Made by a program: the position numbers and the translations under genes. Positions 7,681 through 21,451 of a DNA stretch of 64,000 nt are shown here, piece after piece. The notes beneath the pieces are model-generated. The model ran no database searches. It was given only the letters and a program-made list of their open reading frames with translations, and was not told the DNA's origin. The stretch spans positions 231,532-295,531 of the forward strand of contig JBHLKM010000002.1 of the NCBI GenBank assembly GCA_048886685.1, read 5' to 3'. Every line of letters starts with the position of its first letter. The first letter of the stretch is position 1. Source of the stretch: Candidatus Hodarchaeota archaeon. GTDB taxonomy: Archaea > Asgardarchaeota > Lokiarchaeia > Sigyniarchaeales > SOKP01.

Positions 7681-9624
7681 ATGAATAATAAAGAAAATCA
7701 TCGGATTGGATACTATGCTTGTCAATGAGGTGTAAATATAAGAACTAAGGTAGATTGCGATGAATTAACTAATTATGTTAAGAGTCTTGGAGATGAAATT
7801 ATAATTTCGAAGAAAAACCCATTTCTATGAACTGATAATGCTCAAAATGAAATTATAGAGGACATCAAAGAAAAGAATTTAAATAGAATTGTAGCGTCCG
7901 CTTGAACTCCGCGTACACATGAGGTGATTTATAGAGGTACTATTGCTAAAACGGATTTAAATCCTTATTATTTTCAAATGGTAAATGTTCGGGAACATTG
8001 TTCTTGGTGTACAGATACTAAAGAAGAAGCTACAGAAAAGGCAAAAGTTTTAGTAAAAAGTGGCATTGAAAGAGCCAAGCGATTGGAACCTGTTCCTATT
8101 AAAACTGTTCCCGTCACTAAAGCCACTTTAGTTGTTGGAGGTGGGATAGGAGGTATGAATGCAGCTCTAGATTTAGCGAACCAAGGTATTAAAGTTTACT
8201 TAGTCGATATTAAAACAACAATCGGAGGAAGAATGGCTCAATTGGACAGAACCTTTCCAACAGACGACTGTGCGATATGAATCTGCGGTCCAAAAATGCT
8301 TGAAGTTAATAGAAATGAGAATATAGAATTATTAACATATTCTGAAGTAAAAAAAATTGAAGGATACGTTGGTAATTATAAGGTAACTATTGAGAAGAAA
8401 CCACGATACACAACTGATGAATGTAATGGTTGTGGTGCTTGCGCTGAAGTCTGTCCAGTTTATACAACGAATTATTTTGATGAGCATCTAGGTGCACGAA
8501 GAGCAATAGATATTCCATTTGGTCAGGCAGTCCCGTTTCTATATGATATTGATCGAAATGCATGTGTTGAGTGTTTTTCATGTGTAGACGCTTGTGAATT
8601 GGATGCTATTGATTTTAGCCAGGAACCTACAGAACTTAATGTTGAGGTTGGTACAATCATTATAGCGACTGGTTGGGATATACATGAACCTTTTGGCGAA
8701 TACGGATATGGAGAATTCGAAAATGTGATTACTCAAGCTCAACTAGAACGAATTTTAGCTCCAAACGGACCACTTGAAGGCCACGTACATCGAATTTCGG
8801 ATAATAAGAAACCTAAGGAAATTGTTTTCATTCAATGTGTCGGTAGTAGAGAAGAGGATAGGACTTACTGCAGCGGAGTGTGTTGCATGCTTGCTTTAAA
8901 GAATGGACGATTGCTTTTAGAAGAATTTCCTGATGCAAACATTACAATCTGTTATATTGACATAAGAACTCCTGAAAAAGGATTTGAAGAATACTATGAA
9001 CGAGCTAAAGATGCTGGTATTAGATTGATACGAGGGAAAGTAGGTGAAATTTCTGAAGATCCAGAAACAAAGAACGTGAAAGTTCGAGTATATTCAACAT
9101 TAACAGATAAAATTGTAAAAATTGATGCTGATTTAGTTGTGTTATCCACAGCAGCAATCCCTTCAAAAGGTACTCAACAGATTGTAGAACTTTTAAATCT
9201 TGATACTAATACTTATGGCTTTCTAACAGAATCACATTTCGGATTAATGCCCCAAGAAACTAAGTCAAAAGGCATTTTTATAGCTGGATTTGCTCAAGGA
9301 CCGAAAAATATTTCTTATTCCGTTTCTCAAGCTAGAGCCGCTGCTAGTAAAGTAGCGGAATTAACATCACCTGGAGAAATAGATATTGAACTAATTACTG
9401 CTGAAGTTGATAGCGATTTTTGTATCTCCTGTCGACGATGCGAAAAAGAATGCCCTAAAAATGCCATCAAGATTGAAGAAGACATCGGAGCGTTCATTGA
9501 TGAGATAAATTGCGATGGATGCGGTATCTGTGCTACATGCTGTCCTACTCAGGCAATTGATATAAGGTATTATCGAGATCATCAATTATTTGCAGAAATT
9601 GATGGAATTTTAGGAGGTGGTTAA
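7681..9624 (+). CDS. hdrA: Selenocysteine-containing heterodisulfide reductase subunit A (647 aa, 4 Sec)
   Basis: One frame from ATG 7681 to TAA 9624 with in-frame TGA at 7726 (ACQ*GVNI), 7828 (FL*TD), 7903 (SA*TPRTHE) and 8278 (DDCAI*ICGPKM). These match CHCGINI, YSCSS, ASCTPRTHE and DCSLCILAPKM in the paralogs. The call joins ORF-track fragments 7924-8280 and 8296-9624. Confidence 0.93.
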
Positions 9625-9627
9625 ACA

Positions 9628-10101
9628 ATGGACAACTATAATTATAAAATTGTTGCTTTTGCTTGTTTAAAATGAGGTTATAGCGCAGCGGATTTAGCAG
9701 GTGTTTCACGAATGAAATACCCTTCTTCCATAAAAATAATTAAAGTTCGTTGTACAGGAAGAGTAGATTTGAAACATATACTTTATAGCATTAAATCTGG
9801 GGCGGATGGTGTAATGCTTGCTGGTTGAAGACCCAGTGAATGCCAGTATAAAAACGGTAATTTCACGGCTAATAAACATGTCGAATTCGCAAATAGAATT
9901 TTAGAATCTAGAGGCTTCGGAAATCAAAGAATTAACATGTATTGGTTAAGTGGAGCAGAGTCAGAAAAATTTGTAAGAAGTGTAGAAGATGCTTTAGAAA
10001 AGGTAAAATCTGTTGGACCAAGCCCAATTAATTTAGTAAAACAAGAAGCAGAAATAGAAGCTAAAGAAACAAAACAAGCTATAACTACCCCTGCAGAATG
10101 A
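9628..10101 (+). CDS. mvhD: Selenocysteine-containing hydrogenase delta subunit MvhD/VhuD (157 aa, 2 Sec)
   Basis: MDNYNYKIVAFACLK*GYSAADLAGVSRMKYP...VRCTGRVD...GADGVMLAG*RPSECQY. TGA 9673 and 9826 align to the Cys of CNWC and GCH in the paralogs. GGAGGTG RBS upstream. Entirely missing from the ORF track. Confidence 0.93.
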
Positions 10102-10146
10102 ATCTTATAAAAAACTTTAGTTATAGGATGACTTACCTTGCGAGGG
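10088..10146 (+). ncRNA. Eukaryote-type SECIS element (cis-acting mRNA structure)
   Basis: AUGA (10098-10101), 9-bp stem AUCUUAUAA/UUAUAGGAU, loop AAAACUUUAG, then GA (10130-10131); lower stem CCCUGCAG/UUGCG-A-GGG. Confidence 0.85.
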
Positions 10147-10217
10147 AAGGGGTCTTAAAATAGTATTCAATTAAAATAAAAAATTTGTTAAATGGAAAAA
10201 TCCAAAAGGATGAGAAT

Positions 10218-11714
10218 ATGGTTCAAATTTCAAATAATGTATCTTTCAATGGAATATCCCCAAAAAATCTAATGGATGCAACATATAAAGCCATTAAAAA
10301 TTTTCAAATTCGAGCGTTCTTCGAAGCTAAAGATGAAATTTTAGAAATAGGTAAATATTCTGAAGAAGAATTTTATAAAATATTAGATGCCATGATAGAT
10401 GCTGAAACAGAGCGTAAATTAGTACTGGAGTCTTTAAGGGGTAAGGAACCGTTATTTTTAGAGGAAATTGCAAAAATTCTAAAAGACTTTCCGGCAGAAC
10501 ATGTAATTCGTGATATAATTTACCTAAAAGAACAGGGATATATTGAAGAACATATTGAAATAAAAACTAAAATAGTTATCAAGAAAATAAAGGGAGAAGA
10601 AAAAGAAGTCGAGGAACAAGAATATTTCTACAGATATCAAGTAAAAGATATACCCGAGGATTTCATTGAACATTTTTTTGAACCTGTCTCTATTGTCTTC
10701 GATTCTGAAGTATGCTGTCAATGTGGTTGGTGTTCATCTATTTGTCCTGTAAATGCCATTACAGTCACAGCAGATACTTTAGAGATCGATGATGAGACTT
10801 GTATGAAATGTGGGATCTGTTATTCTGTTTGCCCGAGATCATTTTCAATTGAACAAGCGGGTAAAAGCATAAATAAGCTTGATAAATCTTTAAAATTCTC
10901 AGAAAAAATTAATGGTTATATTAATACCTATTCTGCCTCCACCACTAAAAATGAAATTAAAAAAGTTCGACAAGATGGGGGAATTGTTACTTCTTTACTT
11001 GAATACTTACTCAAGAATAAATTAGTTGATGCAATTATAGCTGTAAAACATTCAAAGGACCTATGGAAACCAGAGCCAGTAATAGTAGAAGATGTTAAAG
11101 ATTTATACAAAACAAGTGGTACTAAATACGCTAATGCCTCAACTTTAAATATCATTGATGAAACGAAAAAGTACGAAAACATAGCAGTCGTAGGAGTTCC
11201 TTGTATGATGAATGCATTAAAAAAAGGGTATTTATTTCCAAGCGGACAACCTTTTTTCAAAAACATTAGCTATAGAATAGGGCTTTTCTGCATGGAATCT
11301 TTTCCCTATGAAGGAGTGCTTAAATTAATTAAAGATCAATTTGATAAAGATTTTAATAAAGTTACTAAAATGGATATAAGTGGGGGTAAATTTATTATAT
11401 ATTTAGATTCGGGTGAGGATTTAAGAGTACCCTTAAACGATGTTAAATCCTATGCACGCCATAATTGTCATTTTTGTGAGGATTTGACTGCCGATTATGC
11501 TGATATTTCTGTAGGATCGATTGGGTCTCCTAGTGGTTGGTCTACAGTAATTACGCGAAATGAAAAAGGTGATAAAATCTATAAAGACGCAATTAAAGCA
11601 GGATTAATTGAATCTAAAAGCTTAAAGGAGGTAAAACCAGGACAACCCTTATTAGAAAGGATTGCTGGTACAAAAAGAAAAAATTGTAAACCCATTAAAT
11701 TGGGACAAGAATAA
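10218..11714 (+). CDS. FrhB-family F420-binding subunit with N-terminal winged-HTH-like domain and 2x[4Fe-4S]
   Basis: CCQCGWCSSICP, CMKCGICYSVCP, QDGGIVT, SGTKY, VGVPC, IGLFCMESF, CHFCEDLTADYADISVGSIGS. ATG 10218 is preferred to TTG 10185. Confidence 0.85.
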   Translation: MVQISNNVSFNGISPKNLMDATYKAIKNFQIRAFFEAKDEILEIGKYSEEEFYKILDAMIDAETERKLVLESLRGKEPLFLEEIAKILKDFPAEHVIRDIIYLKEQGYIEEHIEIKTKIVIKKIKGEEKEVEEQEYFYRYQVKDIPEDFIEHFFEPVSIVFDSEVCCQCGWCSSICPVNAITVTADTLEIDDETCMKCGICYSVCPRSFSIEQAGKSINKLDKSLKFSEKINGYINTYSASTTKNEIKKVRQDGGIVTSLLEYLLKNKLVDAIIAVKHSKDLWKPEPVIVEDVKDLYKTSGTKYANASTLNIIDETKKYENIAVVGVPCMMNALKKGYLFPSGQPFFKNISYRIGLFCMESFPYEGVLKLIKDQFDKDFNKVTKMDISGGKFIIYLDSGEDLRVPLNDVKSYARHNCHFCEDLTADYADISVGSIGSPSGWSTVITRNEKGDKIYKDAIKAGLIESKSLKEVKPGQPLLERIAGTKRKNCKPIKLGQE

Positions 11715-11732
11715 TAATAACAAAGAATTATT

Positions 11733-12833
11733 ATGAGTGTAAAATCTTTTCAAAATTTAATAAAAGAAGTTCATGAGAAAGGAATTTGTCAAGAATGCGG
11801 AGGTTGCGTAAGTTTTTGTAGTTCGGTTGATTATAATGTTATAGGATTTAAAGAACCTTACTCACCTCCAGAATATATTAATAAAGATGCGTGTCTTGAA
11901 TGTGGTATTTGTTATTATCTATGTCCTCAAACTCACATATTAGACGATGAACTTAATAAAACTTATAAATTTATAGATTTTAAATCAATGCCACTTGGTT
12001 ATTTCGAAGACATATATTCTTGCCAATCCACTGATCCTGATTTTCTAAAATATGGAACTGATGGTGGAGTAGTGAATTCAATAATTAATTATATGTTAGA
12101 AAAGAAATTAATTGATGGAGCAATAGTTGCTAAAATTCAGGGTCCTTTTTCAAAAGAAGCTATGTTTGCTGGTGATAAAAAAGATTTAATTAAAGGTTCT
12201 GGGACAAAACTTGAAATATCGACACAGTTAGATGAGATACAGAATTTTTGTACGTATACTCGCTCCATCCCAGAATTAAACCGTTACAAATTTAAAAAAT
12301 TAGCAATAGTAGGGACGCCCTGTCAAATTTATACCATCAGGTGTATGCAAAATTTAGGGGTTACTCCTTCAGAATATATAGAAATATGTTTAGGATTATT
12401 TTGTTATCATAATTTCCTTTTTGATAAAGCTCAAATAGAAAAATTTGAAAAAGACTTTGATGTAAAATTTGAAGATATCACAAAAATAAACATTAAGGAA
12501 GATCTTATTTTAAAAATTGGCACAGATGGGAGAGTAGTACATATTCCCTTCGATAAAATAGTAGATTATGTACGTCCCGCTTGCTTTAGTTGTGCTGATT
12601 TCACCAATGTGTATTCAGACATTTCTTTTGGAGGACTTGGATCTCCAGATAAGTATACTACAGTAATTCCCCGTACTGAAAAAGGACGTAAATTATTTCA
12701 TAAAGTTCTGGATGATCAACTTATCAAAAAATTAGTACTTGATGCTCCTGAAAAAAGTAAAATGAAAGAACGAATAACAAAATTCTCTCATTCGAAAATG
12801 GAGAGGGAACTAAGTTTTGTAAAAAATTTATAG
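11733..12833 (+). CDS. FrhB-family F420 hydrogenase/dehydrogenase beta subunit
   Basis: CQECGGCVSFC, CLECGICYYLCP, TDGGVV, VGTPCQ, LGLFC, CFSCADFTNVYSDISFGGLGS. Confidence 0.85.
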   Translation: MSVKSFQNLIKEVHEKGICQECGGCVSFCSSVDYNVIGFKEPYSPPEYINKDACLECGICYYLCPQTHILDDELNKTYKFIDFKSMPLGYFEDIYSCQSTDPDFLKYGTDGGVVNSIINYMLEKKLIDGAIVAKIQGPFSKEAMFAGDKKDLIKGSGTKLEISTQLDEIQNFCTYTRSIPELNRYKFKKLAIVGTPCQIYTIRCMQNLGVTPSEYIEICLGLFCYHNFLFDKAQIEKFEKDFDVKFEDITKINIKEDLILKIGTDGRVVHIPFDKIVDYVRPACFSCADFTNVYSDISFGGLGSPDKYTTVIPRTEKGRKLFHKVLDDQLIKKLVLDAPEKSKMKERITKFSHSKMERELSFVKNL

Positions 12834-12840
12834 TAAGGGT

Positions 12841-14097
12841 GTGAGATATCTGACCGAGTTGAAACAACCCAGTAAAAGTGATCAAGAAACTGATGAAATT
12901 CAAGTTTTTTTAGATAAAATATATGAAACTGATTTAAGACATTTATTGAAAAAATGTTATCAATGCGCACGATGCTCAGGTGTATGTCAAATTAGTAAGG
13001 TTCAGAAATTTACACCTAGTAGGATCATCCAAATGATTTTGGAGGGATTTGAAGACGAAATAATTGATAATGGAGTATTATGGGAATGTTTGACCTGTAA
13101 TAGTTGTCTCCAAGACTGTCCTAAAAATATAAATTTTGCAGATATTGCTCGGATTCTAAGATATAAAATGAGAAATAAGGGTATTCATAACCTTGAGAGA
13201 GCGGTTGCTCATAAAGGAATTTATCCTACAATGGGTGAATTGATGAGTCAAGATTATATTAATATCAATCGTCCTTTAGATTGGATCCCTAAAGGTTGTA
13301 AGATTGCAGATAAAGGTGAAATCTTATATTACGTTGGATGTTTGCCATTTTTCGATTATGATTTTCAGAATCTCAAGCCTATCTCATCAAGTACTTTAAA
13401 AACTATATGTAAAATTGAAAATGAACCAATTGTCGTACTTAAAGAAGAGACTTGTTGTGGACATGATTTATATTGGGGGCAAGGAAAATTTGAAGTTTTT
13501 ATTGAGTTAGCTAAGAAAAATCGAGAAAAATTTGAAAAAGCAGGCATATCAACAATAATTACTGCTTGTGCGGAATGCTACAGAACATTCAAGGTTGATT
13601 ATGCGAATTTATTTGATGATTTCAATAAAAGGTTTGATGTTCAACATATTATTGAATATGTATATGATAAGTGGAAACAAGGGAAGATCGATTTTAAAAA
13701 ACCTAATGAAAAATATAAGAAAACCACTTTTACGTTTCACGATCCCTGTAGATTAAGTAGATTTTTACCAACAGAAAACAACCTGGTAAAGAATTTAAGA
13801 GAAATTTTTAATTATCTACAGAATTTGGGGTATAATTTTAAAGAAATGAAACATAATCAAGAAAATTCCCTATGCTGCGGAGTTAGTTCTTGGTTAAATT
13901 GTAATGAGCGCTCTAAAGCATTGCGATACACCCGAATCTTAGAGGCAAAAGAGGTTGCTACTCAAGTATATACATCTTGTCCTAAATGTAACGTTCATTT
14001 GAATTGTATTAAAAAAGATTATGAGGATATTTCTTCGGTAGAAATTTCAGATCTTTCAGAATTTCTCGCAGATATAATAAAAATTGTAAAAAGTTAG
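12841..14097 (+). CDS. HdrD/GlpC-like Fe-S oxidoreductase (4Fe-4S dicluster plus two CCG domains)
   Basis: CYQCARCSGVC, CLTCNSCLQDCP, ETCCG, TACAEC, FHDPCRLSR, LCCG, TSCPKC. Confidence 0.85.
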   Translation: MRYLTELKQPSKSDQETDEIQVFLDKIYETDLRHLLKKCYQCARCSGVCQISKVQKFTPSRIIQMILEGFEDEIIDNGVLWECLTCNSCLQDCPKNINFADIARILRYKMRNKGIHNLERAVAHKGIYPTMGELMSQDYININRPLDWIPKGCKIADKGEILYYVGCLPFFDYDFQNLKPISSSTLKTICKIENEPIVVLKEETCCGHDLYWGQGKFEVFIELAKKNREKFEKAGISTIITACAECYRTFKVDYANLFDDFNKRFDVQHIIEYVYDKWKQGKIDFKKPNEKYKKTTFTFHDPCRLSRFLPTENNLVKNLREIFNYLQNLGYNFKEMKHNQENSLCCGVSSWLNCNERSKALRYTRILEAKEVATQVYTSCPKCNVHLNCIKKDYEDISSVEISDLSEFLADIIKIVKS

Positions 14098-14120
14098 AAA
14101 ATTGAGGAGATAATAAAATC

Positions 14121-17100
14121 ATGGAAGGATCTGTGTTAGTAATTGGAGGAGGTATTGCAGGGATCCAAGCTTCTTTAGATTTAACGGAGATGGGATTTAA
14201 AGTTTATCTAGTAGAAAAAACTCCTTCTATTGGAGGTAGAATGGCTCAACTCGATAAAACATTTCCTACTTTAGATTGTAGTTTATGCATATTGGCACCT
14301 AAAATGGTTGAAGTTTTCAGAAATCCTAATATCGAACTAATGACTTATCATGAAGTTAAAGAGGTTACTGGTAAAGCTGGAGATTTTAAGGTTACTGTTC
14401 TTAAGAGACCTCGTTTTGTTGATGAGACAAAATGCAAAGGATGTGGGGATTGTACCACTAGATGCCCAAAGATCGAAGCCCCAAATATTTTTGACATGAA
14501 TCTGGGAAAAAGAAAATCAATATACATCCCATTTCCTCAAGCAGTTCCACCAGTTTATTTGATTGATCCTGATATGTGTTTAAAATTGACGAGGGATGTA
14601 TGTGGTGTCTGTGAAAAAGTTTGTGAAGCAAAAGCTATAGATTTCACACAAAAAACTCAAGAAATTCAAATAAGTGTTGGAGCGATAGTAGTTGCTACTG
14701 GATTTGATATGGCTAGAGATGGTTTATCATCAAGATGGGGCATTGATTATGATAATGTAGTGACTGCATTAGAGTATGAAAGAATTCTATGTGCTTCTGG
14801 ACCATTTGGGGGGCATGTTTTACGCCCGAGTGATAAGGAAGAGCCAGAAAAGATAGCATTTATTCAATGTGCTGGATCAAGAGACTTGCATGAAAGAATT
14901 CCCTATTGTTCCAGCGTATGTTGTATGTATACGAGTAAAGAAGCCATAATCACTAAGGAACACTCTGATCAGTCACAATGTTTTGTTTTTAGACATGATA
15001 TTAGAGCCTATGGGAAAAATTTCTATGAATTTACCCAGAGAGCCCAAAATGAATATGGTGTGAATTATTTTCACACTAAAATTAGTAAGATTAAAGAAGA
15101 TCCTGAGAATAATGATCTGATTATACACTATGAAGATTTACAATCAGGTTTACTTAATAATTTTCGAGCAAATTTAGTCGTCTTGGCAACACCCTTGGTC
15201 CCTTCTAAGGGAACTGAAGAATTAGCAAAGATTTTAGATATCGAATTAGATGACTATAACTTTTTTAAGGAGAAATCACATTTTACTAAATCGAGATCCT
15301 CGAAAAAAGGTATTTTTTTAGCAGGATTTTGCCAAGGACCTATGGATATACCTGAAACTGTGGCTGATGCCAGTGGAGTGGCTTCCCAAGTAGCAGTTCT
15401 ACTTAGTTCCGTTAAATTTACTGAGACCAAAGAAAAAATAATAGAAGTGCCAGAAAAAGAGGTAAAAATAACAGATGACCCGAGAATTGGGGTACTAATT
15501 TGTCATTGTGGAATTAACATAGGAAAATATATCGATATTCCAAAAGTTATTGAATATATAAAGAATTTGCCTAATGTGGTTTTTTGTGAAGATAATTTGT
15601 ATTCTTGCAGTTCCGATTCTCAAGAAAGAATTAAGGAAGTAATAAACGAATTTAATTTAAATAGGTTTGTTGTAGCATCGTGTACTCCACGAACTCATGA
15701 ATCCTTATTCCAAGAGACCTGTCAAGAAGCAGGATTGAATAAATACTTGTTTCAAATGGCTAACATTAGGGACCAGTGTTCTTGGGTTCATATGGAACAA
15801 CCAGAAGAAGCTACGCAAAAAGCAAAAGATCTAATTGAAATGGCTGTTGCTAAATCCAGATTATTTAAACCCCAAGAAGAACAGACATTATCCATGACTC
15901 CCAAAGCATTAATTATTGGTGGGGGTATATCTGGAATGACTGCCGCGTTAAATATTGCTAATCAAGGATTTAATGTCTACCTTATAGAAAAAGAGAACAG
16001 GTTAGGGGGATTATTAAATGATTTATATCTCTTATATCCCACTCAAGAAGATTCTTCAACATTTTTAAAGAGGATAATAGAAGATACTACCAAAAATAAA
16101 AACATCCAGATATGTTTAGAATCAAAAGTAAAAGATGTTAAAGGATATATAGGTAATTATGATATCTCCATTGTTAACTCCAAAAAAGAAATTACCGAAT
16201 TTAAAGTGGGTGTTATTATTGTTGCTACTGGGGGAAAAGAATTAAAACCTATTGGATATCCGCAATATAATGATAAAAATCAAAATGTAATAACTCAATT
16301 AGAACTGGAACGGAAATTAAAAGCTGAAGATTTATCATGGCTTGACAAGATCAAACGCATTACGACTATCTTGTGTGTTAGAGCTAGAGAAGTAAAAGGA
16401 ATTACATATTGTTCAAATGTGTGTTGTGCAATATCTATTAAAAACTTAAATATTCTTAAGGAATTAAAGCCAGATCTTGAAATAATTGTTCTTTACAGAG
16501 ATTTTCAAATGGCCAAAAAAGAATTTGAAGAATATTTCTTTGATAGAAGGAAGGATGCAATTCTTCTGAGATATAATTTAAATAAACCACCAGATATTAA
16601 AAAAATTGGTAATAAACCCGAGAAATATGGAATAAAGGTATTCGATACTAATTTACAAGATGATATCAATTTTGAAACAGATATGATTATCTTATCTCCT
16701 CCTATGAGTCCTCCAGAAAATTCAGAAGAATTAGCAAAAATGCTTAAAGTACCTTTAGACCATCAAGGCTTTTTCTTAGAAGCTCATGCTAAATTAAGAC
16801 CTGTAGATTTCGCAACAGATGGAGTATTTTTATGTGGATGTGCCCATTGGCCAAAACATATTCAAGAATCAATTACTCAGGCAAATGGAGCAGCAGGAAG
16901 AGCAAGCAGATTTTTGAGTTCAGAAGATATTATTGCATCGGGTTTAGTATCAGAGGTGGATGATGAATTATGTATCGGATGTGGTGTTTGCGTGAAACTT
17001 TGTCCTTATAATGCAATATCGAAGAATGAACAAGAGGTAGCGGTTGTTAACAAACTCATGTGCAAAGGATGTGGAGTTTGTGGTGCTAGTTGTCCTGAAA

Positions 17101-17171
17101 ATGCGATAACTGTACATCATTTTACAGACGACCAAATCTTATCAGAAATTATTGTATACGGAGGAGATTAA
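14121..17171 (+). CDS. hdrA: Large (two-module) HdrA-like FAD/Fe-S protein
   Basis: VIGGGIAG, GGRMAQLDKTFPT, YCSSVCC, RIGVLICHCG, second IIGGGISG, C-terminal ferredoxin. Confidence 0.88.
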   Translation: MEGSVLVIGGGIAGIQASLDLTEMGFKVYLVEKTPSIGGRMAQLDKTFPTLDCSLCILAPKMVEVFRNPNIELMTYHEVKEVTGKAGDFKVTVLKRPRFVDETKCKGCGDCTTRCPKIEAPNIFDMNLGKRKSIYIPFPQAVPPVYLIDPDMCLKLTRDVCGVCEKVCEAKAIDFTQKTQEIQISVGAIVVATGFDMARDGLSSRWGIDYDNVVTALEYERILCASGPFGGHVLRPSDKEEPEKIAFIQCAGSRDLHERIPYCSSVCCMYTSKEAIITKEHSDQSQCFVFRHDIRAYGKNFYEFTQRAQNEYGVNYFHTKISKIKEDPENNDLIIHYEDLQSGLLNNFRANLVVLATPLVPSKGTEELAKILDIELDDYNFFKEKSHFTKSRSSKKGIFLAGFCQGPMDIPETVADASGVASQVAVLLSSVKFTETKEKIIEVPEKEVKITDDPRIGVLICHCGINIGKYIDIPKVIEYIKNLPNVVFCEDNLYSCSSDSQERIKEVINEFNLNRFVVASCTPRTHESLFQETCQEAGLNKYLFQMANIRDQCSWVHMEQPEEATQKAKDLIEMAVAKSRLFKPQEEQTLSMTPKALIIGGGISGMTAALNIANQGFNVYLIEKENRLGGLLNDLYLLYPTQEDSSTFLKRIIEDTTKNKNIQICLESKVKDVKGYIGNYDISIVNSKKEITEFKVGVIIVATGGKELKPIGYPQYNDKNQNVITQLELERKLKAEDLSWLDKIKRITTILCVRAREVKGITYCSNVCCAISIKNLNILKELKPDLEIIVLYRDFQMAKKEFEEYFFDRRKDAILLRYNLNKPPDIKKIGNKPEKYGIKVFDTNLQDDINFETDMIILSPPMSPPENSEELAKMLKVPLDHQGFFLEAHAKLRPVDFATDGVFLCGCAHWPKHIQESITQANGAAGRASRFLSSEDIIASGLVSEVDDELCIGCGVCVKLCPYNAISKNEQEVAVVNKLMCKGCGVCGASCPENAITVHHFTDDQILSEIIVYGGD

Positions 17172-17175
17172 TTAT

Positions 17176-17949
17176 ATGAATTTCACCCCAAAAATTTTAG
17201 GATTTTTATGTAATTGGTGCTCTTATGCTGGAGCAGATCTTGCTGGGGTAAGTCGAATTCAATACTCTCCTAATATTAGGATAGTAAGGGTTATGTGCAG
17301 TGGAAGAGTTGATCCTATATTTATTGCTGAAGCACTCTCAAGAAATATTGATGGAGTACTTGTTTTAGGATGTCATCCTGGAGACTGCCATTATATCAGC
17401 GGTAATTATGAAGCAGAGATAAAAATGAAGATGCTAACTAAATTATTGAAAATAATTGGGTTTTCTGAACGTTTAAGGTTGGATTGGGTTTCTGCTGCTG
17501 AAGGAAATAGATTTGCTCAACTAGTAAATGAATTTACTGAGCATATTAAAAATTTGGGTCCAAATCTGGTTAGAGACAAAAAATTAAAAAATAAATTAAT
17601 ATCCGATTTTGATGCTATAAAATCTGTATTGAAAGATTCAAGACTTAGAATTCTAGTTGGTAGAGAAAGAAAAATCATTAATGAAGGTAATGCATATAAC
17701 GAGAAAATCCCATTAGAGAAATTTGAACAAATTCTTGACGATGCCATTCAGAATGAATTTGAACGTCATAAAATATTACAAATAATTTCTGAAAATGGTA
17801 AATCCGTACCAGAAATCTCTAAAGAAGTTCAACTTCCCCCAAATAATGTGCTAAATCATATTGTTTCCTTAAGACAAAGAGGGTTGGTCGATTTACACGA
17901 GCTGAATGAAGAAATACCCCTATTTATATCAATTAACGAGGGCAAATAA
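17176..17949 (+). CDS. mvhD: MvhD (Cys form) fused to a C-terminal winged-HTH-like domain
   Basis: FLCNWCSYAGADLAG, VMCSGRVD, GCHPGDCHY plus about 120 extra residues; ATG 17176 follows GGAGGAG. Confidence 0.85.
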   Translation: MNFTPKILGFLCNWCSYAGADLAGVSRIQYSPNIRIVRVMCSGRVDPIFIAEALSRNIDGVLVLGCHPGDCHYISGNYEAEIKMKMLTKLLKIIGFSERLRLDWVSAAEGNRFAQLVNEFTEHIKNLGPNLVRDKKLKNKLISDFDAIKSVLKDSRLRILVGRERKIINEGNAYNEKIPLEKFEQILDDAIQNEFERHKILQIISENGKSVPEISKEVQLPPNNVLNHIVSLRQRGLVDLHELNEEIPLFISINEGK

Positions 17950-20900
17950 TGGAAAAAGTTGGTGCAGTACTGGTTGTTGGTGGAGGCATAGCAGGTATTC
18001 AAGCATCCATTGATTTGGCAGATTCAGGTTATAAAGTATATATAGTAGAATCGTCTATGAGTATCGGTGGGGTTATGTCACAGCTAGATAAAACCTTTCC
18101 TACTAATGATTGTGCTATATGTATCCTTGCCCCAAAATTAGTGCTTACGGGTCGTCATGAAAATATAGAAATAATAATAAATTCATCTATAGAAAAAATC
18201 GAAGGAGAACCAGGAAATTTTAATGTGGATATTATCCAAAAATCGCTTTATTTAGATCAAAATAAATGTACTGGATGTGGTGTGTGTGCCCAAAAATGCC
18301 CCATTGAAGCTATTGATTTCTTCAATGAAGGATTTTCTAAAAAATCAGCAATATCTGTAAAATTTCCACAAGCAGTTCCATTAGTTTTCTCAATAGATAA
18401 AGAAAAATGTATAGGATGTGAAGTTTGTAAAGAAATTTGTAAAGCAAATGCCATAGATTATGAGCTTAGAGATAAGAAAATAAATCTCAAGGTAGGAGCA
18501 GTAATTTTAGCAATTGGTTTTGATGAATTTGAACCTTCTCCTTTAATAAATATTGGCTACGATAAATACTTGAATGTCATAACGAGTATTGAATTTGAAC
18601 GTACGTTAAGTGCTAGCGGACCTCACTCAGGTTTAATTCTCCGTCCTTCTGATGGAATTATTCCAAAAAAAATAGCTTTCTTACAATGCATCGGTTCAAG
18701 GGATAAAAGTATTAATGCTGAATATTGTTCTTCAGTATGTTGTATGTATACCACAAAAGAAGCAGTAATTGCAAAAGAACATGTGAATTTTATAGAACCT
18801 ACGATCTTTGCAATGGATATAAGAGCATATGGTAAAGATTTTGATAAATATATTGAACGGGCAAAGAATGAACATGGCATACGATATATTAGAAGAAGGA
18901 TTTCAACTATTAGTGAAATTCCAGATTCAAAAGATTTAAAGATTCGATATGAAACAGATGATGGGAAAGTCATTGAAGAAATTTTTAATTTAGTTGTTCT
19001 TGCTGTAGGAGCACAATCTAATAAGAGTTCTATAGAATTAGCTCAAAAGTTAAATATAGAGTTAAATGAATATGGTTTCTGCAAAACAAAAAGTTTTAAT
19101 CCGGTAGAAACATCAAAACCTGGAATCTATGTATGTGGAATGTTTGCCTCACCTAAGGATATCCCAGAAACTGTCATCGAAGCTAGTGCTGCTGCTGGAT
19201 GCGTTAATGTTTTGCTAACAGAAGTAAGAAATACATTAATCTCAAAGAAAGAACTCCCAGAAGAAATTGATGTGAGTGAACAGCCACCAAAAATAGGGGT
19301 CTTTATATGTCATTGTGGAATTAATATTGGGGGGGTTGTTAACGTTCCTGAGATTGTCGAATATGTAAAAACATTACCTAATGTAGTATATGCTGAACAT
19401 AATCTATACACTTGTTCCGCTGATACTCAAACGAATATTAAAGAAAAAATAACAGAAAATCAGCTTAATAGAGTAATAGTTGCTTCATGTACTCCAAGAA
19501 CGCACGAACCCTTATTTCAAGCAACAATACAGGAGGTAGGATTGAATAAGTATCTTTTTGAGATGGTGAATATCAGAGATCAATGCTCTTGGGTTCATAT
19601 GCATGAAGCTGAAAATGCAACATCAAAAGCAAAAGATTTACTAAGAATGTCAGTAGCTAAAGCTGCACAGTTAATTCCATTACAAGAACAAGAAATTGAT
19701 GTAATCGACAAAAGTTTAGTCATTGGTGGGGGTGTATCTGGAATGATTTCAGCTTTAAATTTGGCTTCTCAAGGTTTTGAAGTATTCTTAATTGAAAAAG
19801 AAGATTCTCTAGGAGGATTTGTCAAGAATATTTTCCAAACCCTTGAAAATGACGATATTCAAGAATTTATTATCAACCTAATACAAGAGGTTGAAAATAA
19901 TCAGTTAATTCAAGTATTTAAAAAAGCTCAAATTAATTCAATTTCAGGATACATCGGCAATTTCACCACAAATATATCTTATGGGAAAAATAATAAAATT
20001 ATTGATCTTGAACACGGAATAATTATTGTGGCTACAGGCGCAAAAGAATACCAACCAAATGAATACAATTATGGACAAGATCAGAGAATTATATCTCAAG
20101 TTGAATTTGAAAAAACCCTTTTTACTACAAATGAAGTAAAAAAATTGAATTTAATCACAATGATACAATGTATTGGTTCTAGAAATGAAGATCATCCCTA
20201 TTGTAGCAGAATATGTTGTTCTGAAGCCATAAAGAATGCATTAAAAGCAAAAGAAATCAACCCAAATCTTGAAATAATTATTTTATATCGTGATATTCGT
20301 ACATATGGATTCAAGGAGAAATATTACAATCTGGCTAGAGAAAAAGGAGTCATTTTCATTAGATTTGATGAAAATAAACCCCCAGAATTAAAAATAAAAA
20401 ATGAAAAGTTAAATCTTTTAGTTGAAAGACCCGATATAGGTAAATTGGAAATAAATCCAGAATTAATCGTTTTAAGTACAGGACTCGTAGCACCTATAAA
20501 AGAAAATGAAGATCTAGCAAAAATGCTAAAAGTTCCTCTTAATGAGGATAAATTCTTTCTCGAAGCTCATGTAAAATTAAGACCAATTGACTTTGCAACA
20601 GATGGTATCTTTTTATGTGGTTGTGCACACTCACCTAAAAATATTAGGGAATCTATTGCTCAAGCTAATGGAGCCGCTGCCCAAGCAGTTAAAGTTTTGG
20701 GTGCTAAAAAAATTGTAACATCCGGTCTTGTTGCTACTGTAATAGAAGATAATTGTATTGGATGTGGAAATTGTGTTGAAGTTTGCCAATTTAATGCAAT
20801 AGAATTAGTAGAACAACAAAAAGAGTTCGAAGATTGCACAATTACAATAAAAAAATCTCATGTTAATTCAGCATTATGTAAAGGTTGCGGGACATGTGGA

Positions 20901-20984
20901 GCTCAATGCCCAAATTCTACAATTATTATAAAACATTTTGGATTCGAGCAAATAAGTGCCATGATTTCTGCTCTTTTAGTCTAA
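17949..20984 (+). CDS. hdrA: Large (two-module) HdrA-like FAD/Fe-S protein
   Basis: VVGGGIAG, LDKTFPTNDCAIC, YCSSVCC, IGVFICHCG, YCSRICC, C-terminal ferredoxin. Confidence 0.88.
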   Translation: MEKVGAVLVVGGGIAGIQASIDLADSGYKVYIVESSMSIGGVMSQLDKTFPTNDCAICILAPKLVLTGRHENIEIIINSSIEKIEGEPGNFNVDIIQKSLYLDQNKCTGCGVCAQKCPIEAIDFFNEGFSKKSAISVKFPQAVPLVFSIDKEKCIGCEVCKEICKANAIDYELRDKKINLKVGAVILAIGFDEFEPSPLINIGYDKYLNVITSIEFERTLSASGPHSGLILRPSDGIIPKKIAFLQCIGSRDKSINAEYCSSVCCMYTTKEAVIAKEHVNFIEPTIFAMDIRAYGKDFDKYIERAKNEHGIRYIRRRISTISEIPDSKDLKIRYETDDGKVIEEIFNLVVLAVGAQSNKSSIELAQKLNIELNEYGFCKTKSFNPVETSKPGIYVCGMFASPKDIPETVIEASAAAGCVNVLLTEVRNTLISKKELPEEIDVSEQPPKIGVFICHCGINIGGVVNVPEIVEYVKTLPNVVYAEHNLYTCSADTQTNIKEKITENQLNRVIVASCTPRTHEPLFQATIQEVGLNKYLFEMVNIRDQCSWVHMHEAENATSKAKDLLRMSVAKAAQLIPLQEQEIDVIDKSLVIGGGVSGMISALNLASQGFEVFLIEKEDSLGGFVKNIFQTLENDDIQEFIINLIQEVENNQLIQVFKKAQINSISGYIGNFTTNISYGKNNKIIDLEHGIIIVATGAKEYQPNEYNYGQDQRIISQVEFEKTLFTTNEVKKLNLITMIQCIGSRNEDHPYCSRICCSEAIKNALKAKEINPNLEIIILYRDIRTYGFKEKYYNLAREKGVIFIRFDENKPPELKIKNEKLNLLVERPDIGKLEINPELIVLSTGLVAPIKENEDLAKMLKVPLNEDKFFLEAHVKLRPIDFATDGIFLCGCAHSPKNIRESIAQANGAAAQAVKVLGAKKIVTSGLVATVIEDNCIGCGNCVEVCQFNAIELVEQQKEFEDCTITIKKSHVNSALCKGCGTCGAQCPNSTIIIKHFGFEQISAMISALLV

Positions 20985-21019
20985 TATTAAATTGTAATTA
21001 ATGAAAAAAATGAGGAATA

Positions 21020-21451
21020 TTGATAAGTCAAGAAAAAAAAGGAAAAAATGTAGAATTTACTCCCAATATTTTATGTTTTTGCTGTAATTGGTGTAGTTAT
21101 GCAGGAGCAGATTTAGCTGGAGTATCACGTTTTCAATATCCCCCGACCATAAAAATAGTAAGAGTAATGTGTTCTGGTAGAGTAGATCCCGCTTTCGTTT
21201 TAGAGGCATTTAAAGAGGGTATTGATGGAGTCATTGTGACAGGGTGCCATATCGGTGATTGCCATTACCTTAAAGGAAATGAATTTGCAAAAGAAAGATT
21301 TGAACGTTTTAGAGAAACTATAAAAATATTTAACCTCGAGAAGAGATTTCGACTTGAATGGGTAAGTGCATCTGAAGGTAAACGATTCGCTGAAGTTATC
21401 ACTGAATTTACTAATCAAATTAAAAAATTAGGCCCATTACTCACAATTTAA
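21020..21451 (+). CDS. mvhD: MvhD (Cys form)
   Basis: CCNWCSYAGADLAG, VMCSGRVDP, GCHIGDCHY, WVSASEG. Confidence 0.92.
   Translation: MISQEKKGKNVEFTPNILCFCCNWCSYAGADLAGVSRFQYPPTIKIVRVMCSGRVDPAFVLEAFKEGIDGVIVTGCHIGDCHYLKGNEFAKERFERFRETIKIFNLEKRFRLEWVSASEGKRFAEVITEFTNQIKKLGPLLTI

Follow-up and report, generated by a model that had tools for sequence, protein, structure and literature searches.

Two genes of one archaeal cluster carry similar winged helix-turn-helix (wHTH) extensions, one at the end of a cysteine (Cys) form of MvhD and the other at the start of an FrhB-like subunit, which is separated from the preceding MvhD homologue, a selenocysteine (Sec) protein, by a stop codon and a selenocysteine insertion sequence (SECIS). 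Was a fused gene broken where the SECIS arose, as the first-pass annotation of this DNA had proposed, or is the split arrangement older? Both genes lie in the window, by which we mean the whole stretch of 64,000 nucleotides analysed (contig 2:231532-295531 of a Candidatus Hodarchaeota genome of 4.4 Mb with a G+C content of approximately 31%), and database orthologues of the window's proteins are labelled Promethearchaeota or Lokiarchaeota. We confirm by sequence comparison that the extensions are copies of one module, and the best reading of the evidence is that the split is an old, conserved arrangement and not the product of a SECIS that appeared within a fused gene. With a probability of roughly 0.6, we consider the module a docking adaptor that goes with MvhD and whose gene boundaries are labile. 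The two genes and their modules are as follows.

10218-11714, plus strand: wHTH-2x[4Fe-4S]-FrhB-like subunit (Pfam Fer4, FrhB_FdhB_N/C; orthologues of 498-506 amino acids, aa)
10254-10670, plus strand: adaptor module on the FrhB-like protein, modelled as four helices followed by a winged helix whose beta-hairpin wing is long
17176-17949, plus strand: Cys-MvhD-wHTH fusion (PF02662, 180 bits), between two HdrA genes of approximately 1000 aa
17599-17946, plus strand: adaptor module on MvhD, placed by BLASTP, a six-copy alignment and hhalign

The two extensions are copies of one module

In a BLASTP comparison, residues 154-249 of the 265-aa Cys-MvhD aligned with residues 31-123 of the 509-aa FrhB-like open reading frame (ORF), with an E value of 3e-6 and 30% identity over 100 columns. 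The hhalign check suggested in the first-pass annotation, done with 21 FrhB-linked against 20 MvhD-linked copies, gave a probability of 99.1% and an E value of 1.6e-18 over 95 columns. Since this match covers the helical part before the wHTH, it amounts to more than generic wHTH likeness. The similarity originally seen by eye is thus confirmed, and on these alignments the two extensions are homologous copies of a module of approximately 110 residues. The order MvhD then wHTH, described for both loci, was likewise found and is conserved among relatives.

Six copies of the module are present in the source genome. A match on contig 15 (345 aa, E 0.024) was judged to be due to chance; the protein is without Hdr/Mvh-type domains, and its sequence looks like that of a radical-SAM enzyme.

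The FrhB-like gene belongs to the FrhB/FdhB family, with PF04422 and PF04432 scoring 78.6 and 145.6 bits, respectively, after a Fer4 match of 37.9 bits. Its longest ORF begins with TTG at 10185. The ATG at 10218, preceded by GGATGA, is likely the true start, because it is conserved in the orthologues and fits their database lengths.

Fold of the module and a possible regulatory role

An AlphaFold2 model of the FrhB-borne module, built from a 51-sequence alignment, reached a predicted local distance difference test score (pLDDT) of 94.2 and a predicted template modelling score (pTM) of 0.80, with helices at residues 69-75 and 81-93 and strands at 97-112 and 115-130. The module profile matched wHTH chains of the ArsR/SmtB type with E values from 8.5e-9 (best) to 1e-5, and Foldseek returned generic winged-helix proteins only, at probabilities of 0.99-1.0 and E values all above 0.01. 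Profile and model together show that a small bundle of helices comes first in the module and an ArsR-like winged helix second. No family in the Pfam scan covers it as a whole; HTH_5 and HTH_20 fall on residues 205-248 of Cys-MvhD-wHTH, and the HTH matches lie at or below the gathering thresholds. The full Cys-MvhD-wHTH protein was modelled as one rigid body (pLDDT 91.4, pTM 0.88) free of low-confidence linkers, and this single-chain model lends support to docking. None of the solved MvhD and ElpC chains (129-141 residues) has the wHTH extension.

The first-pass annotation had left the choice between a docking and a regulatory module. Matches of the profile to ArsR/SmtB, MarR and TrmB regulators, and fold matches that are mostly transcription factors, would agree with a DNA-binding regulator through which the redox subunit controls transcription of its own operon. 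We consider such a role very improbable. The module is acidic to neutral, and the mean net charge of its FrhB-linked copies, -6.4, argues against DNA binding; against it also stand the threshold-level Pfam matches, the predicted rigid packing on MvhD, the operon-internal place kept in many phyla and the protein-protein contact seen in the one solved relative, BamF. The docking half of the proposal is retained as the best guess, given the contact of the BamF wHTH with BamI and the Geobacter match described below, and the regulatory half is disfavoured.

A SECIS lies between Sec-VhuD and the FrhB-linked module

Upstream of the FrhB-like gene we located two further features.

9628-10101, plus strand: Sec-VhuD of the MvhD/FlpD family (PF02662, 148.8 bits; Sec at codons 16 and 67; stop TGA 10099-10101)
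10096-10132, plus strand: lokiSECIS, with a GAAUGA core, 9-bp stem, 10-nt A-rich loop and 3' GAC, from a 26-locus alignment

The VhuD score is well above the PF02662 gathering cut-off of 22.3. The protein shares 38% identity with its Cys-MvhD paralogue, in which both U16 and U67 align to Cys. The AUGA core of the SECIS (10098-10101) contains the vhuD stop codon, and its stem pairs 10102-10110 with 10121-10129. The inner seven pairs are kept in 25-26 of the 26 related loci, with compensatory exchanges among AU, GC, UA and CG. It is this covariation that supports the structure, because the region, folded as a single sequence, did not exceed shuffled sequence in stability (z = 0.01); an Rfam search with the element gave no match. 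Judged by its sequence, the element can be classed as a lokiSECIS, having the AUGA core, 9-bp stem, loop and 3' GA directly after the stop, and it fits the element named and described, with an apical loop of approximately 11 nt, by Mariotti et al. in 2016 (PMC4989117). The spacer from VhuD to the wHTH-FrhB gene measures 116 nt, so that a stop codon, a SECIS and a new start do separate VhuD from the module, as the first-pass annotation had stated. One locus (L050) appeared to have no SECIS between VhuD and wHTH and was rejected; the earlier TGA is the true stop there, and the apparent read-through spans the SECIS.

Five arrangements of the module

The wHTH profile matched in 357 of the 398 genomes of the phylum, in five arrangements, here called types A to E. 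Sampling outside Asgard archaea consisted of one pattern-based scan, made with a six-sequence alignment over GTDB species representatives, which yielded at least 80 loci. All locus counts are descriptive, since relatives are not independent.

Type A consists of HdrA, Cys-MvhD-wHTH and HdrA and was found in several Asgard families. Outside Asgard archaea it occurs in Bathyarchaeia, Methanomassiliicoccales, other Thermoplasmata, ANME-1, Chloroflexota, Desulfobacterales, WOR-3, Clostridia and others, with MvhD-wHTH flanked by HdrA genes in at least 47 archaeal and at least 13 bacterial species loci. Type B has the order HdrA(Sec), VhuD(Sec), lokiSECIS, wHTH-Fer4-FrhB. Within its own family it was present in all 20 sampled orthologous loci, covering seven genera; it was also found at a second locus of the source genome (contig 6) and at 17 loci in families f5, f6, f7, f20, f21 and f28.

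In type C a degenerate, Cys-less MvhD precedes wHTH-Fer4-FrhB, with neither HdrA nearby nor a SECIS. The two genes are separate, with an AT-rich spacer, in genomes of genera g1, g12 and g2, and they are fused in nine g1 genomes into one protein of 620-644 aa. This triple fusion comprises the Cys-less MvhD, the wHTH module, 2x[4Fe-4S] and FrhB, and its MvhD domain still scores 27.2 bits with PF02662, above the cut-off. In type C, split or fused, MvhD has no Cys at the cluster-proximal sites and so no set of cluster ligands. The source genome has its own triple fusion, of 630 aa, at contig 2:306008 (305996-306820, minus strand; L008/L065), approximately 10 kb past the end of the window. Divergent from it stands a 479-aa FrhB homologue (L008:9015-10451, plus strand) with a winged helix of the TrmB type at its C-terminus (PF01978, 29.3 bits, above its cut-off), a second and different pairing of FrhB with wHTH in this genome.

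Type D is wHTH-Fer4-FrhB-GltD behind an NfnA/PyrK-like gene. The source genome encodes it as a 911-aa wHTH-Fer4-FrhB-GltD/NfnB-like fusion (L010, contig 8:158541-162172), which has the NfnA/PyrK-like gene (DHODB_Fe-S_bind) before it and a glutamate dehydrogenase gene with two in-frame TGA codons after it. Type E comprises stand-alone wHTH genes of 110-140 aa. Four f28 genomes have the order HdrA, Cys-MvhD, wHTH, FrhB, and an HdrA-linked version of this type exists as well. The end of the MvhD gene overlaps the start of the wHTH gene by approximately 20-29 nt; the ATG and the TGA are both conserved, and a frameshift artefact was ruled out. A comparable pair of Cys-MvhD and stand-alone wHTH occurs in family f9. 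The stand-alone representative P0124 is labelled partial and was set aside.

Direction of change

Two FrhB trees were built, one from 46 sequences of wHTH plus FrhB and one from 35 sequences restricted to the FrhB part, with the wHTH-less FrhB2 as root, and they agree. In both, the triple fusion forms a single clade (support 99 and 100/97), nested in three successive split, Sec-free branches, and all of these jointly are sister to the Sec-split clade of the own family. FrhB proteins with a separate wHTH gene branch as the sister group of every wHTH-fused FrhB (98/98). According to the MvhD tree, type C MvhD, which has no Cys, lies within the Sec-VhuD clade of the own family (98, 99); MvhDs preceding wHTH-FrhB form a group (96) apart from type A MvhD, and the latter falls together with the plain MvhDs of methanogens. 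When the wHTH modules are compared, the FrhB-linked copies fall in a single clade (95) whose sister group is the stand-alone copies (84), with the 65 MvhD-linked copies placed elsewhere in the tree. Both the wHTH and the MvhD tree are short (116-149 columns) and unrooted, and they leave open whether the module was, at the deepest node, a free protein, part of MvhD or part of FrhB.

Because the triple fusion is nested in split, Sec-free relatives, a direction can be read for one event only, and that event is a fusion. The history that the trees resolve has four steps, beginning with duplication of a Sec-VhuD/wHTH-FrhB pair; one duplicate then lost Sec, the cluster ligands and the SECIS, remained split for long, and finally fused once to give the triple fusion.

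These results bear directly on the proposal of the first-pass annotation, in which an MvhD-wHTH(-FrhB) gene was broken when Sec and the SECIS arose and the freed wHTH stayed on, or joined, FrhB. The same domain order in both loci and a break lying exactly at the SECIS speak in its favour, as does the finding that all sampled Asgard Sec-VhuD loci followed by the module, at least 39, are split, with none fused. MvhD-wHTH is moreover the most widespread form and could be older, and unrooted trees are compatible with a deep fission. Full MvhD-wHTH-FrhB fusions, for which the annotation had recommended a search, do exist in the nine g1 genomes, but they are derived and not ancestral; the fused clade is late, of single origin and nested, instead of being basal or paraphyletic to the split forms. 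Neither is splitting confined to loci with Sec and SECIS. Sec-free splits occur in g1, g2, g12, g65 and f9; in three genera the Sec-free relatives of the triple fusion still have separate genes, an AT-rich spacer standing in place of a SECIS, and in f28 Cys-MvhD, wHTH and FrhB are three separate genes, with the f28 FrhB and wHTH sister to the FrhB-fused clade. The expected association of split with Sec and of fused with Cys therefore stands for the Asgard Sec loci and, qualitatively, breaks down for Cys-only or Sec-free loci. The FrhB-linked module is sister to stand-alone modules and is not nested in Asgard MvhD-wHTH, and the VhuD clade before wHTH-FrhB is separate from the MvhD of MvhD-wHTH. 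Furthermore, the Lokiarchaeal VhuD was reported to group with Sec-VhuD of Methanococcales and Methanopyrus, with an AUGA-type SECIS common to both (Mariotti et al., PMC4989117), in which case Sec and SECIS would predate the association with the module. We thus consider fission at the SECIS improbable; the account is attractive but unsupported, and it is corrected here.

The SECIS as a possible barrier to fusion

A different influence of the SECIS would be to keep the genes apart. Lying directly after the vhuD stop, it might block fusion, the adaptor thus being carried by the downstream partner; we regard this as rather unlikely. We give no better odds to its corollary, that fusion was feasible only after loss of Sec or with a SECIS inside the coding sequence. 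In bacteria the SECIS sits inside the coding sequence, and among the matches listed from the GTDB loci, 6 of 25 bacterial MvhDs with the extension have Sec at a canonical position. Archaeal MvhD-wHTH, among the matches listed, has Cys in 47 of 47 loci and Sec in none, a contrast that is confounded, as most archaea with MvhD-wHTH are probably without Sec. Internal TGA codons were absent from the best 150 family-level matches.

The asymmetry in Asgard archaea, with no fusion in the sampled Sec loci vs. many in Cys loci, points the same way, as does the one datable fusion, which arose in a lineage already devoid of Sec, cluster ligands and SECIS. Yet the Sec-split loci make up one or two clades, and thus very few independent events, and the Sec-free relatives long remained split. 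The lokiSECIS also reportedly acts over approximately 2 kb (Mariotti et al., PMC4989117), so that one placed after a fused wHTH should still work. Given the one or two Sec events, the probable absence of Sec from the archaea compared and this reach, hindrance of fusion by the SECIS fits the asymmetry and is possible but unproven. The general form of the idea, in which untranslated SECIS elements of the archaeal/eukaryote type bar fusion and recoding signals shape the architecture of electron-bifurcating complexes, with the adaptor ending on FrhB, is likewise doubtful, and we put it forward tentatively.

Two candidate exceptions among archaea were rejected. A truncated MvhD-wHTH (P0133), taken at first sight for a Sec fusion cut at its Sec codon, sits on a 965-nt contig; in a Bathyarchaeia locus (L149) with apparently two U in MvhD, the TGAs lie upstream of the start and off the ligand positions.

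Proposed role of the module

With fission at the SECIS improbable, we return to the docking adaptor. The module would be a protein-protein adaptor at the interface of MvhD and the next electron-transfer module, its place in the gene order being right after the MvhD-type [2Fe-2S] connector of HdrA-based electron-bifurcating complexes. Because it would sit at a subunit interface, it could be attached covalently to either neighbour or to neither. In the window, the FrhB-like dehydrogenase presumably docks through its N-terminal module onto the separately translated VhuD, and electrons could pass from the FAD (flavin adenine dinucleotide) of FrhB through the [4Fe-4S] clusters to the [2Fe-2S] cluster of VhuD and on to HdrA. 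We infer that the module docks, that electrons take this path and that DNA is not bound; for the docking of the FrhB-borne module on VhuD, gene order and BamF are the grounds.

In the class II benzoyl-CoA reductase of Geobacter the MvhD adaptor is BamF, which exceeds known MvhDs in length by more than 100 residues and contains Sec19; in a cryo-electron microscopy preprint its wHTH interfaces with BamI (doi 10.64898/2026.04.10.717634). The extension of a homologue from a Geobacter metagenome-assembled genome (L158), which has Sec near residue 16, matched the MvhD-linked profile at 96.6% (E 5.8e-10) and gave a weak match of 39% with the FrhB-linked one. On these profile matches Geobacter BamF can be placed as a distant member of MvhD-wHTH. 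An extended MvhD of the BamF type, with an extension of approximately 110 aa ending in a wHTH, is encoded at 17176-17949 and not at 10218-11714.

Several points weigh against the adaptor with labile boundaries. L158 is a homologue from a metagenome-assembled genome and, by sequence, a putative equivalent of the BamF in the solved complex. The BamF wHTH contacts BamI and not MvhD, which leaves the partner surface in the Asgard proteins uncertain. The contig 8 paralogue, wHTH-FrhB-GltD, has no adjoining MvhD gene. Lastly, an ancient fission of an MvhD-wHTH gene is possible.

Other features of the window and of related loci

The genes discussed above belong to a single plus-strand supercluster spanning 7681-21451 of the window, which also includes the following.

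7681-9624, plus strand: HdrA with four in-frame TGA (Sec) codons, forming one 647-aa frame when TGA is read as U; local domain map
10130-10154, plus strand: second hairpin, directly 3' of the SECIS
11733-12833, plus strand: second FrhB homologue, from the supercluster map
12841-14097, plus strand: HdrB/C-like CCG protein, from the supercluster map

The HdrA at 7681-9624 is the upstream partner of VhuD. Its TGA codons stand at Cys positions, its orthologues in 20 related genomes have 3-5 U, and its stop is a TAA vs. the TGA within the SECIS core that ends VhuD. After the CCG gene the order continues with a 1016-aa HdrA, the Cys-MvhD-wHTH gene, a 1011-aa HdrA and a plain MvhD.

The second hairpin folds in 26 of 26 loci with differing sequences; its stems are fully different between two of them (L046 and L047), and it is also present after a VhuD lacking a downstream FrhB (L011). 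In family f21, three loci (L195, L196, L204) have stand-alone wHTH genes of 123-138 aa among HdrB/C-like CCG genes and not beside MvhD. In other Asgard families, eight loci (L041, L055, L056, L058, L059, L192, L202, L203) show a short, TGA-free MvhD-like gene followed by a protein of 750-950 aa with one or two central wHTH-like stretches and C-terminal Fe-S or CCG motifs. A database search for longer homologues returned close orthologues only.

Significance and comparison with known systems

The adaptor is conserved and lacks a Pfam family of its own; it would mark the places where input modules plug into MvhD-HdrA complexes. Its range, from Asgard archaea, Bathyarchaeia, Thermoplasmata and ANME-1 to several bacterial phyla, links these loci to the newly solved BamF. 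For the metabolism of Asgard archaea the prediction is that the complex of the HdrA-VhuD selenoprotein pair would include, as a physical subunit, the FrhB-like dehydrogenase encoded behind that pair. The split, stand-alone, left-fused, right-fused and triple-fused forms offer a natural series of what may be one interface, useful for modelling and for tests of recoding vs. fusion.

Among known systems, DsrD, a non-regulatory winged-helix protein, resembles the module as a small winged-helix fold beside a redox enzyme; it ranked 45th among the fold matches, a likeness at the level of fold class only.

The Lokiarchaeal HdrA-VhuD pair of Mariotti et al. 2016 (PMC4989117) is like that of the window in having a multi-Sec HdrA, a two-Sec VhuD and a single AUGA-type SECIS after vhuD, within whose core the UGA stop may fall. 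Neither 'FrhB' nor 'fusion' occurs in the full text of that paper, which is therefore silent on the downstream FrhB gene and on the shared wHTH.

FdhAB-MvhD-HdrABC and ElpABC-HdrABC of methanogens match the window in gene content, with HdrA, MvhD/VhuD and an FrhB homologue. In them, FrhB-family subunits (FdhB, ElpB) pass electrons via an MvhD-type connector to HdrA (PMC12350162). They differ in that the solved MvhD and ElpC are without a wHTH and none is reported on FdhB or ElpB (PMC12350162).

BamF, from the BamBCDEFGHI complex of G. metallireducens, shares with the window an MvhD-type [2Fe-2S] subunit plus wHTH beside HdrA, BamE being a fused double HdrA, and it has Sec at the first ligand-proximal position. 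The BamF module is carried on the MvhD homologue itself, whereas in the Sec locus of the window it forms the N-terminus of the next, FrhB-like subunit, and its partners are BamGHI vs. FrhB or HdrA in the Asgard loci.

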